Shown: positions 3,245 through 11,225 of the stretch, piece after piece
Position numbering within the stretch: the stretch's first letter is position 1
Layout: each line of letters opens with the position of its first letter
IMG/VR virus record: IMGVR_UViG_3300037424_000553
Coordinates: 947 to 64,946 of that record
Strand: one strand, 5' to 3'
DNA length: 64,000 bases
From: a virus
Notes under the pieces: model-generated
Databases searched by the model: none
Told to the model about the DNA's origin: nothing
The model's input: only the letters and a program-made list of their open reading frames with translations
Program-made: the position numbers and the translations under genes

Positions 3245-3483
3245 GTGGTTGGATCCTCCTTGGGAGTGGTGGTGTTGCCATCGACTTCTGCCGTCTCGCG
3301 TCGAGGCGAGTGCTTGCCCGTGTTGTTCTTGCGATAGTCGGTCAGCTTGTACCACGCCGCGTAGGCGCCTTTGCTCTTGTCGGCGGGGAAGTACCGCCAG
3401 ACGCCGCCCTGTTCATCGAGCGCAAAGAGTCCATCGCGTCCGACGCCGATCTGCTTGAATACTGCCGGTGCACTGTCGCTCAT
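3241..3483 (-). CDS. hypothetical protein
   Basis: ATGA overlaps at both ends. Confidence 0.65.
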   Translation of the reverse strand: MSDSAPAVFKQIGVGRDGLFALDEQGGVWRYFPADKSKGAYAAWYKLTDYRKNNTGKHSPRRETAEVDGNTTTPKEDPTT

Positions 3484-7749: not shown

Positions 7750-7884
7750 CTACCGCGCCCGCTTCAGCTTGACGACTCGAGCCGAGAGACCGCGTCGCCG
7801 GATATAGCGGGCCATCTCATCGGCGTCCTTCTTGTTGAACTGCAGGATCTCACCGAATCGCCAGACGACCATCCACTTGAACAT
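7750..7884 (-). CDS. hypothetical protein (44 aa)
   Basis: MFKWMVVWRF..., follows the stop of the previous gene. Confidence 0.5.
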   Translation of the reverse strand: MFKWMVVWRFGEILQFNKKDADEMARYIRRRGLSARVVKLKRAR

Positions 7885-7886
7885 GG

Positions 7887-8144
7887 CTATTTGCCCTCCT
7901 TGATCCAGCTCAGATCGATGCCCAGCTCCGCCGCGTAGGCGATCCCGGCGTCGGTGAAATACAACCAGGTCTGTCCCTCGTCGCGCTGCGTGCCAACCAA
8001 CTTGGCCCGCTTGAGTTGCGTGAGGTTGCCGCGAAGTTCCTTGCTGCTCTCGACGTTCCCGCCGACGAGCGGCATCCCGCTCCAGTTCCCTGCATCCTTC
8101 GCGAACGCCTCGAACAGTGCCTTGCTCGTGTCAGTCAACTTCAT
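7887..8144 (-). CDS. small winged-helix-like protein, first gene after the ribozyme
   Basis: SD GGAGG; LRGNLTQLKRAKLV...WLYFTDAG resembles a wHTH. Confidence 0.6.
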   Translation of the reverse strand: MKLTDTSKALFEAFAKDAGNWSGMPLVGGNVESSKELRGNLTQLKRAKLVGTQRDEGQTWLYFTDAGIAYAAELGIDLSWIKEGK

Positions 8145-8160
8145 GATGTGGTGTCCTCCA

Positions 8161-8228
8161 GTGGTTTGGTTTCGGCCTTACCTCGGCCCTCCTCAGTCAG
8201 GGATGTACCCTGAGACCATCATGACCAC
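8161..8228 (-). ncRNA. type III hammerhead ribozyme
   Basis: UGGUC / stem I UCAGGG-UACAU-CCCUGA / core CUGAGGA / stem II GG(G)CC-GAGGUAA-GGCC / GAAA / ACCA; stem III extended by GUGGU:ACCAC; predicted cut between 8214 and 8213. Confidence 0.88.
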
Positions 8229-8871
8229 GCTCGCTTGTCATCGCGGTGTCGGGGCCGTCCTCTCTCTGTCCCGCCGACTACTCCAGTCCTGAACGTCGCC
8301 CGGCTTCGAGGCCCGTAGCGATCGGTCTGAGCGAGTGTGAGGGTATGTCGCCGTGAGGCGTGAGGTGCTGCGGATATTGGAGGCGGTGTTGCCTGCGTCA
8401 GTAGGATGCGTCGGAAGAATTCCGCGATGTCCCCATCGCGAAGAGAGAACGGAGCCGACCAGTGTGGTCATGCTCCCCGAAGGACTACCCGCCGGTGCGC
8501 TACGCTGCCCGCCGGATCCTTCAGTGTGATTGGCCCGTGCTTGGGTCCTCAATCCCGAGTAGCTGGTTTTGGGCTGCCGCCCGTTTCCCCCGCGTGCCCT
8601 TCTCCGACTCGCCCCGCCTGGGGCCTCGAAGATCTTGGGTCGTCGCCTACTGGCTTGCTCCTGGGGTTCGACTCGCCTGTCTCCCTGACTCGGAGAGTAG
8701 TCGGCTTGTGCTGGCCCCATCGCGGTACTGATCTCGGTTTACCGGGGAGAGTGTCTTGGAATCTTGTGCTCTCCTCTGGCTCGCTGCCCCGGTCTCGAAT
8801 CTCGGGACTATCTAGGCTAGAGTTACCAGGCTTACTTTCTAGCCTCCCTGACTACCAAAACCATCCTCTCA
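8214..8871 (-). ncRNA. candidate large structured noncoding RNA (about 650 nt)
   Basis: No credible ORF; GNRA and UUCG tetraloop hairpins; 11-bp and 12-bp long-range helices; bounded by a promoter and the hammerhead. Confidence 0.65.
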
Positions 8872-8877
8872 TATATA

Positions 8878-8908
8878 AGGATAAGGTGTCCACTTTTATT
8901 GGTGTCCA
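8878..8908 (-). promoter_or_regulatory. putative promoter TGGACA-N19-TATCCT with TGGACACC direct repeats
   Basis: AT-rich island; repeats at 8885-8892 and 8901-8908; same architecture at 34279-34309. Confidence 0.5.
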
Positions 8909-8944
8909 TTTTTGTTGATTAAATCAAACACTTACAACACACCT

Positions 8945-8968
8945 CCCTGACAAAATCAGGGGTTTTTT
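8945..8968 (+). terminator. intrinsic terminator-like hairpin with T6 tract
   Basis: CCCTGA-caaaa-TCAGGG-g-TTTTTT. Confidence 0.5.
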
Positions 8969-8976
8969 GAAGGAAT

Positions 8977-8997
8977 CCCTAGATGGAGAGTCTAGGG
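8977..8997 (-). terminator. hairpin downstream of the lysis cassette
   Basis: CCCTAGA/TCTAGGG 7-bp stem 13 nt after the last late gene stop. Confidence 0.4.
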
Positions 8998-9009
8998 GAG
9001 ATCTATAGA

Positions 9010-9426
9010 CTAGCGACGCTGCTGCTGTTGCTGCGATCCGCGCGAACAATCCGGAAGTTTGTTGATCTGATTTTGAATGCTGCTGAGTCGCACATTGAGC
9101 AGTGCGATGTCCCGCGCTTCATCAGGTGTCAATGCTTTCCGTCCACTCAGTTGATTGATACGAAACTGCGTATCAGCAGCTTGCCCTTCGAGTTGCGTCC
9201 GCTTGATGTCCGCGAACTGACAGGTGAAATCCGCGACAAGCTGTGTGAGCTCATCAGCCCAGACGATCTTGCCAGATCCCCATAGATACAGCGAGTAGAT
9301 CATTGCGACCGCCACGCCGATCTTCACGATGCCCTGCCCGAGCAATCCGAACTGCTCCCAGACATCTGAGAGCGACGCCTTTGGTGGCGGCACTGGGGAT
9401 ACAACCACTTTCTTCTTTCCCATCAT
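9010..9426 (-). CDS. single-pass membrane coiled-coil protein, possibly i-spanin-like
   Basis: One TM helix then a heptad-rich domain with two Cys; in lysis cassette. Confidence 0.5.
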   Translation of the reverse strand: MMGKKKVVVSPVPPPKASLSDVWEQFGLLGQGIVKIGVAVAMIYSLYLWGSGKIVWADELTQLVADFTCQFADIKRTQLEGQAADTQFRINQLSGRKALTPDEARDIALLNVRLSSIQNQINKLPDCSRGSQQQQQRR

Positions 9427-10655: not shown

Positions 10656-11174
10656 TCAAAGCAACGCCCGCCTGAGCCAGCCCTTGTTGAACGTCTCAAA
10701 GCGGGGATCTGGTCCCTCGACCAGCTCGATATAGCGCATGGCATGATAGGCGTTGAGCGCGAGGTCCAACGTCTCTAGGTCAGGACCTCGCGCTGCTTGC
10801 CACTTGAGTCCGTTGATGTGCCCCAGCGTGATCGCCCCGATCTTCCCATCGATGACGACCGGGGTGCCAGGAAGGATGTAGTTGAGTGCCCGCTGGAGAT
10901 ACTGCGCCGTCCGGACCTGCCCGAGATTGATGCTCATATCCAGAAGCTTGTTTGCTGTCTCCTGGTGCTGGACCTCGTCAAGTCTCAGCGGGTCCCAGTA
11001 ACGAGTCTTGTAGAGGAAGAGAGCCCGCTCGACAGTCATGTTTGGGATGTCCTCGTCAGGGAAGTCCCGCTTTGTAATTCCCTTGTTGGTCTCTCCTCCT
11101 GGATCGTTCGGGTCGTTGACATAACCGGCTTCAACGTCAAGAACAGGCTTGGAAGCGATGACAAATGATGCCAT
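10656..11174 (-). CDS. endolysin, glycoside hydrolase family 108 with PG_binding_3-like C-terminus
   Basis: VEAGYVNDPNDPGGETNKGIT; C-terminal F..GWLRR. Confidence 0.9.
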   Translation of the reverse strand: MASFVIASKPVLDVEAGYVNDPNDPGGETNKGITKRDFPDEDIPNMTVERALFLYKTRYWDPLRLDEVQHQETANKLLDMSINLGQVRTAQYLQRALNYILPGTPVVIDGKIGAITLGHINGLKWQAARGPDLETLDLALNAYHAMRYIELVEGPDPRFETFNKGWLRRALL

Positions 11175-11225
11175 CAGAAGTCGCCATTCCACGATGTCAT
11201 TGTACTCCTCCTTCAGAGTTGTGAA

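Follow-up and report, generated by a model that had tools for sequence, protein, structure and literature searches.

An undescribed phage leader RNA with a variant hammerhead at a late/early gene boundary

A stretch on the minus strand of an uncultured phage genome encodes a non-coding RNA that has no catalogued family, an undescribed phage leader with a variant hammerhead. It lies in the window, by which we mean the whole 64,000-nt stretch of DNA that was analysed, itself part of a 97-kb IMG/VR virus record that is about 92% complete. What is new here is the undescribed leader RNA family; the kind of system, a phage transcript processed by a hammerhead, is already known. As selection is consistent on the 5′ module and on the hammerhead while the body varies, we read the region as a three-part leader of the early operon, with a conserved head that would act in cis, a variable structured body, and a self-cleaving tail. 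Our estimate for this reading is about 50%. An initial annotation, made from the window alone, had proposed one discrete, ornate RNA of 650 nt. That the RNA is non-coding, on the minus strand, and uncatalogued is borne out, but the bodies are not shared among relatives and a gene lies inside the RNA in one clade.

Relatives were gathered via the flanking lysis protein, as contigs encoding its homologs. Collecting homologs from IMG/VR or metagenomes had been suggested as a check, and six distinct metagenome relatives with a common layout were obtained. With the window they make seven sequences, which fall into three tight clades. Clade A consists of the window and L003 (identical to L012), with an RNA of about 655 nt that is 87% identical between them. 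Clade B consists of L005 and L006, with an RNA of about 670-690 nt that carries a small ORF. Clade C consists of L014, L019 (its RNA identical to that of L021), and L010, which ends at its contig end; the RNA is 449-532 nt here. L019 has a hairpin expansion, as one apical hairpin is 83 nt longer in L019:3172-3439 than in L014:3172-3356 and the RNAs are otherwise near-identical. Such length variation of peripheral stems is typical of structured RNAs.

The order of parts is the same in all relatives. The lysis gene is followed by a hairpin or terminator, a TAAGTGnTTGAT-type block, a TATCCTTATATA-like block, a long stretch without a conserved ORF, the hammerhead, and finally an RBS with the first early gene. 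When the phage GenBank collection was searched by blastn, no match to the RNA region was found, and pattern scans of IMG/VR with body, hammerhead, and H1-loop motifs recovered L003 as the sole relative. Four contigs with distant homologs of the lysis protein (L009, L011, L017, and L018) are without a leader of this kind. A scan of GTDB genomes with the H1-loop motif gave one match, which falls in an Acidobacteriaceae MAG within a Crp/Fnr-like gene; being a chance match rather than a homolog, it offers no clue to the host.

Genes of the record are essentially all on the minus strand (Table 1). In transcription order, the RNA region comes after the lysis cassette, the end of the late genes, which also encodes two small proteins besides the endolysin. 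Homologs of the last protein of the cassette mark the locus in all relatives and adjoin Amidase_2, SLT, or YkuD genes in other phages. Downstream of the RNA region are small genes without known family and then an AAA ATPase gene, a run that is typical of an early block. With the lysis cassette upstream and the early block downstream, the region sits at the late/early boundary. Synteny between the window and L003 stops exactly at the start codon after the hammerhead (8142-8160 in the window, L003:5320-5340), and the genes beyond it are unrelated. Judging from these sequences, the leader-hammerhead unit would mark a recombination boundary. Another contig, L002, was found via a homolog of the 85-aa early protein, but has no such RNA upstream and was set aside as not a relative of the leader; the sequence upstream of that homolog (L002:60-130) resembles the reverse complement of a tRNA 3′ half.

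Table 1 Features of the RNA region and its neighborhood, in window coordinates
Feature	Position	Strand	Remark
Endolysin gene, GH108 and PG_binding_3 domains	10656-11192		lysis cassette
Last lysis-cassette gene, membrane or coiled-coil protein, 138-162 aa	9010-9498	-	homologs in all relatives
Terminator-like hairpin	8945-8962		3′ of the lysis gene
Conserved block 1, TGTAAGTGTTTGATT	8922-8936	-	kept in all clades; unique in the window
Two tandem 16-nt repeats, GTGGACACC-type	8885-8916	-	clade A only
Conserved block 2, TATCCTTATATATGAGA	8867-8883	-	presumed promoter/start region
Conserved 5′ module, ~125 nt	8731-8858	-	clades A, B, and C
H1, 7-bp hairpin with near-invariant 16-nt loop (8822-8837)	8815-8844	-	5 of 7 pairs change on both sides; 100% of cells paired
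ACCGGG	8788-8793	-	3′ strand of 4-bp local helix H2, or pseudoknot partner of H1-loop 8826-8831
P3, ~10-bp hairpin with AAGACAC loop motif	8742-8779	-	3 pairs change on both sides
Clade-specific non-coding body	8219-8730	-	300-500 nt across clades
Type III hammerhead	8167-8218	-	predicted cut between 8214 and 8213; C17 = 8214
First early gene, 85 aa, no known family	7887-8144	-	RBS and start codon at 8142-8159

We infer that transcription starts at an AT-rich block upstream of the RNA, which is common to all relatives. The promoter put forward in the initial annotation thus stands as a conserved, promoter-like AT-rich block above the RNA, but neither the window nor any relative has a match to a sigma-70-type promoter. 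The reading of block 2 as a promoter for a phage RNA polymerase was dropped because its motif is unique in the window. The 16-nt tandem repeats, possibly a protein-binding site or operator, sit between the two conserved blocks, where clades B and C have a terminator-like hairpin instead. In L014 and L010, terminator-like hairpins on the sense strand, equivalent to that at 8945-8962, precede the TTTAC.../TATATA block.

The other end of the region coincides with the predicted hammerhead cut site, as had been claimed, and the stems of this hammerhead covary in the relatives. The motif, the sole instance of its type in the window, was parsed by hand in the seven sequences and the parse was confirmed by script. 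The core is surrounded by three helices, of which I and II end in loops and III is open, and all three stems show compensatory changes among the 7 sequences. Stem I has 6 bp, five of which change on both sides between clades. Stem II has 4-5 bp, its second pair being G:C, A:U, or C:G, and stem III has 3-4 bp with U:A or G:C as the outer pair. The core positions are C3 U4 G5 A6 N7 G8 A9 ... G12 A13 A14, the A15.1-U16.1 pair, and the H17 cut site. Clades A and B keep every one of these bases, but an additional G or C is inserted between A9 and stem II; clade C is without the insertion, and position U4 is C there. N7, as expected, may be G, C, or U. An extra base at the same position after A9 occurs in the active viroid hammerhead CChMVd. 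These two variations set the motif apart from members of Hammerhead_3 (RF00008), as does its score of 17.0 bits against a gathering threshold of 48.5 (E=0.19 on a 111-nt stretch). Near the cut site, GUGGUCAUGAUGGUC (8220-8231) repeats the UGGUC of stem III, and the 3′ flank (8163-8170) holds ACCA and ACCAC. With these repeats, two registers of stem III are possible, or else competition with the helix formed by 8461-8472.

Hammerheads are known to flank genes in prophage operons (Perreault et al. 2011, PMC3088659). The closest published parallel is in the haloviruses HF1/HF2, whose first early ORF is preceded, at a distance of 13 nt, by a variant hammerhead with a cut site to which the transcript 5′ end maps (PMC3088659). 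The motif described here resembles that HHphage hammerhead in its three-stem junction, open stem III, CUGANGA...GAAA core, and GUC cut site. It also resembles it in lying on a polycistronic phage transcript directly upstream of the first early ORF, as a predicted maker of the mRNA 5′ end. The difference is that a non-coding leader of 450-650 nt precedes it here, not another gene.

Within the RNA, conservation among all three clades is confined to the 5′ module and the hammerhead. Cross-clade alignment by blastn is limited to the first ~125 nt (window versus L005, E=6e-11; L005 versus L014, E=8e-19). A covariance model (R1) built from six sequences, with L010 left out, recovers all its members, at 95.9 bits for the window and 115-134 bits for the relatives, and finds the held-out L010 at 31 bits (E=2e-8). 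In the R1 alignment, 87.5% of cells are paired, and 9 of the 21 pairs change on both sides compared with 5.1 ± 1.4 in shuffles, a count reached in 2 of 500 shuffles. When the partner strand is slid, such changes number 0-2. Searches of two phage records found a single copy of the module in each.

The H1 loop is nearly invariant except for a UGGU/AGCC switch, which co-occurs with a GACC/GGGCC switch ~35 nt downstream. Pairing between loop and downstream segment involves two pairs changed on both sides and one replacement of U-G by A-C. This pairing is a candidate pseudoknot, or an alternative to H2. It has 92% of cells paired, compared with 25-67% when the partner is slid, although the covariation comes from just two ‘alleles’ and one recombination tract could have moved both.

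The body is GC-rich and differs from clade to clade. No similarity between the bodies of different clades is found by blastn. The clade C body was also modeled by covariance (186 positions, 56 pairs), and a search without filters gave nothing better than E=0.27 outside the clade. A consensus of clades A and B from MAFFT and RNAalifold was fragmentary and unreliable, and was discarded.

Folding of the window body was assessed from individual helices. The tetraloop hairpins initially picked out all occur on the minus strand, one with a GGGA loop at 8423-8440 (9 bp when extended to 8421-8442), UCC-UUCG-GGG at 8475-8484, and GGGC-GGCA-GCCC at 8571-8582. However, the GGCA loop is not of GNRA type, and GNRA/UNCG hairpins are not significantly enriched (2 versus 1.45 in shuffles, P=0.42). 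The perfect 11-bp helix between 8695-8705 and 8273-8283 is likewise present, but it is invariant in L003 and hence uninformative on covariation. Nested within it is a second perfect 11-bp helix, between 8621-8631 and 8304-8314, which has one wobble and one mismatch in L003. One such helix alone arises in 6% of dinucleotide shuffles; two arise in none of 600, and four helices of at least 9 bp have P=0.01. The 12-bp helix with two G-U pairs, between 8441-8452 and 8255-8266, is found crossing the 11-bp helix as described, with one compensatory change in L003 (C:G to U:A). It forms a crossing set together with the helix of 8461-8472 and 8220-8231. Because the crossing helices conflict with the nested set, a pseudoknot or two alternative folds would result. 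As for the outer GGGGCC:GGCCCC pairing, both sequences exist, but L003 does not preserve their pairing.

The minimum-free-energy z-score of the 658-nt RNA is -1.33 on the minus strand and -0.18 on the plus strand. Consensus folds of each clade were compared with column shuffles. In clade C, z is -6.1 with 16 compensatory pairs versus 6.0, and none of 60 shuffles reaches 16. In clade B, z is -3.7 with 4 compensatory pairs versus 1.7 (P about 0.07), and in clade A, z is -1.3 with 4 versus 2.0 (P about 0.12, not significant). Support for a folded body is strong in clade C, moderate in clade B, and weak by covariation in clade A. Covariation among relatives, which had been named as a check, is thus seen in the module, in the hammerhead, and in the clade C body, but is not significant in the body of the window's own clade. 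Since reverse complements score similarly in consensus folding, the strand is set by the hammerhead and gene orientation, not by folding counts.

Clade B is exceptional in coding. Between its body and the hammerhead is an in-frame ORF for a basic protein of 49-50 aa (L005:1899-2048, L006:3512-3664), with 60% protein identity where 33% of bases differ. The 5′ piece that cleavage would release in clade B is therefore not purely non-coding RNA. The peptide has no tblastn match in the window, and no conserved ORF was found in clades A and C. A conserved ORF had been named in advance as an observation that would count against a structured RNA; it is absent from clades A and C but present in clade B.

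Parts of the stretch are present in 24 public runs from 23 studies, mostly of sediment; sediment DNA runs with 20-35% of the words number roughly 20. In the metatranscriptome X5, a 699-nt L003-like contig spans 8160-8839; it starts ~20 nt below the TATAT block, crosses the cut site, and reaches the RBS. Shorter pieces occur in two other RNA runs, making three metatranscriptome runs in total. The 8.4-kb L003 locus has 33% of its words in X5 as well. With a third of the locus in X5, either the phage was transcribed or phage DNA was present, and with the contig bridging the cut site, uncleaved molecules or DNA exist in the X5 sample. The bridging neither proves nor excludes cleavage. Mapping to metatranscriptomes did not reveal the discrete abundant species that had been anticipated, as the contig bridges the cut and the flanking locus appears in the same run.

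These observations bear on whether the region instead makes a stable, discrete, trans-acting RNA of ~650 nt, released by the hammerhead to act by itself on host or phage, whether as decoy or scaffold or by forming a multimeric particle in the style of ROOL and GOLLD. We hold this to be possible rather than probable. The non-coding stretch is long and GC-rich, its long-range helices exceed chance, clades B and C show strong consensus folds, the hammerhead forms the 3′ boundary in clades A and C, and the region is found in RNA libraries; even the covariation between H1 loop and downstream segment could reflect an intermolecular kissing contact. Against it, the bodies share no detectable sequence or structure across clades, while to our knowledge known ornate RNAs each keep a single architecture. 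Moreover, a protein-coding gene lies inside the would-be released piece in clade B, the z-score of the window RNA is only -1.3, the RNA contig spans the cut site, and the RNA is not seen above its neighbors in abundance. Clade-specific bodies together with the clade B ORF indicate that the function under selection resides in module and cut, not in one ornate 650-nt fold.

Family searches were consistent with the initial view that the RNA is not ROOL, GOLLD, OLE, RNase P, or tmRNA. Rfam 15 at the gathering threshold gives no match to any family in the 64-kb window, GOLLD, ROOL, OLE, HEARO, raiA, RNase P, group I/II introns, and EGFOA (RF02955) included. With E up to 10 over 7800-9300, nothing relevant appears except the sub-threshold hammerhead, and with E up to 1, five relatives yield nothing. 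ARAGORN reports 0 tRNA or tmRNA genes in the whole window. Like GOLLD (RF01998) and ROOL (RF03087), this is a large, GC-rich, phage-borne non-coding RNA with many helices (bioRxiv 10.1101/2024.12.08.627333). Unlike them, it matches no covariance model, is not beside tRNA genes, keeps only the 125-nt module with the rest clade-specific, and is an operon leader with a ribozyme at the 3′ end.

Variation within the body is uneven. Identity between the window and L003 is 69% over the first 90 nt, 81% at the apical hairpin (8440-8529), and 96% over 8530-8649. Contigs from runs X21 and X23 have loose ends at window position 8796, where the same body is joined to other 5′ sequences, one resembling the H1-H2 region of clades B and C and one unlike any sequence compared. 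As far as can be read from these junctions, they point to mosaic exchange of modules by recombination.

Such mosaic ends, together with clade-specific bodies and the lack of significant covariation in clade A, would also fit a simpler scheme. In it the hammerhead alone matters, perhaps with promoter-proximal hairpins, and sets the 5′ end of the early mRNA, whereas the body is a neutral, recombining spacer. We judge this scheme improbable. A neutral spacer is not expected to persist at 300-500 nt in every clade, or to show the z-score of -6.1 and the 16 compensatory pairs of clade C. Nor is it expected to have 120-nt stretches at 96% identity beside stretches at 69-81%, or two perfect 11-bp helices.

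It is very improbable that the region works as DNA rather than RNA, be it as an origin of replication, a site bound by regulatory proteins, or a hot spot of recombination. Inverted repeats and the two tandem 16-nt repeats speak for it, as does the synteny break directly after the region, with different downstream genes in the window and L003. Yet H1 keeps its complementarity as its sequence changes while the loop is conserved, which is the pattern of an RNA and not of a protein-binding site. The hammerhead is strand-specific, with a conserved core and covarying stems, and the region is GC-rich rather than AT-rich, and appears to be transcribed.

The description of the stretch as gene-free holds for the window's clade, which has no conserved frame. 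A 160-aa ORF (8238-8720) in the window is split by indels of 4 nt and 1 nt in the 87%-identical L003, and a Pfam search gives no matches in the stretch. The L014 stretch has no sense-strand ORF of at least 25 aa before a 119-aa GTG frame at 3327, which opens ~110 nt before the cut and is the frame of the downstream gene extended back into the leader. Hence, unrecognised or decayed protein-coding sequence is scarcely credible, despite the 160-aa ORF and the real small ORF of clade B, given the frame-breaking indels in L003, the lack of Pfam hits, the clade B peptide without a tblastn match in the window, and L014 without ORFs in the stretch.

In the three-part leader that we favor, transcription would begin at the conserved AT-rich block that comes directly behind the late (lysis) operon and its terminator. 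Two hairpins would form in the first ~125 nt, H1 with its invariant loop and P3, along with a short helix or else a pseudoknot of the loop. This 5′ module would be the selected functional unit. By analogy to put-type leaders and nuclease-processing sites, it would most likely work in cis, with either the early transcript as it emerges or the polymerase making it as the target. A GC-rich, self-complementary body of 300-500 nt would come next, clade-specific and quick to evolve and recombine. The hammerhead is then predicted to cut the transcript ~70 nt before the first early start codon, which would leave the early mRNA with a 5′-OH and the leader with a 2′,3′-cyclic phosphate. Such cleavage would uncouple the fates of leader and early mRNA.

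The put RNAs of phage HK022 are cis-acting antiterminator RNAs located just downstream of early promoters, where two 5′ stem-loops of the early transcript make RNA polymerase terminator-resistant. The present module is likewise a stem-loop module at the extreme 5′ end of early transcripts, comparable in position and hairpins alone, but unlike put it has a long body and a ribozyme downstream. To assign antitermination to the module would be pure analogy. No boxA-like sequence of the rrn/lambda type (up to 3 mismatches to a consensus that may not apply to the host of this phage) is found inside 8150-8950. In T7 early mRNA, RNase III processing sites cut the polycistronic transcript upstream of a gene and shape mRNA stability. 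The structured element described here would likewise cleave an early polycistronic phage transcript ahead of a gene, but the cut would be self-catalysed, with no host nuclease.

Hammerheads in phage operons are known, while what they process is rarely clear. Here the hammerhead goes together with a leader RNA, conserved yet uncatalogued, at a late/early boundary in an uncultured group of sediment phages. Its variants, with an extra base after A9 or C at U4, are kept across clades and so provide natural tests of how much the core tolerates. Should early transcription or the fate of the mRNA be under the control of the 5′ module, the module would amount to a new RNA-based switch that operates in the first minutes of infection. 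A bolder proposal, which we think unlikely, is a new class of large phage RNA in which a 125-nt ‘head’ is combined with interchangeable ‘bodies’ of 300-500 nt. It would be released by the hammerhead at the start of infection and act in trans in host takeover, for example as a decoy or a self-assembling particle; on this view, the covariation between H1 loop and downstream segment would reflect contact between molecules. Were the whole leader released to act in trans, it would be a modular addition to the few large phage RNAs of unknown function.
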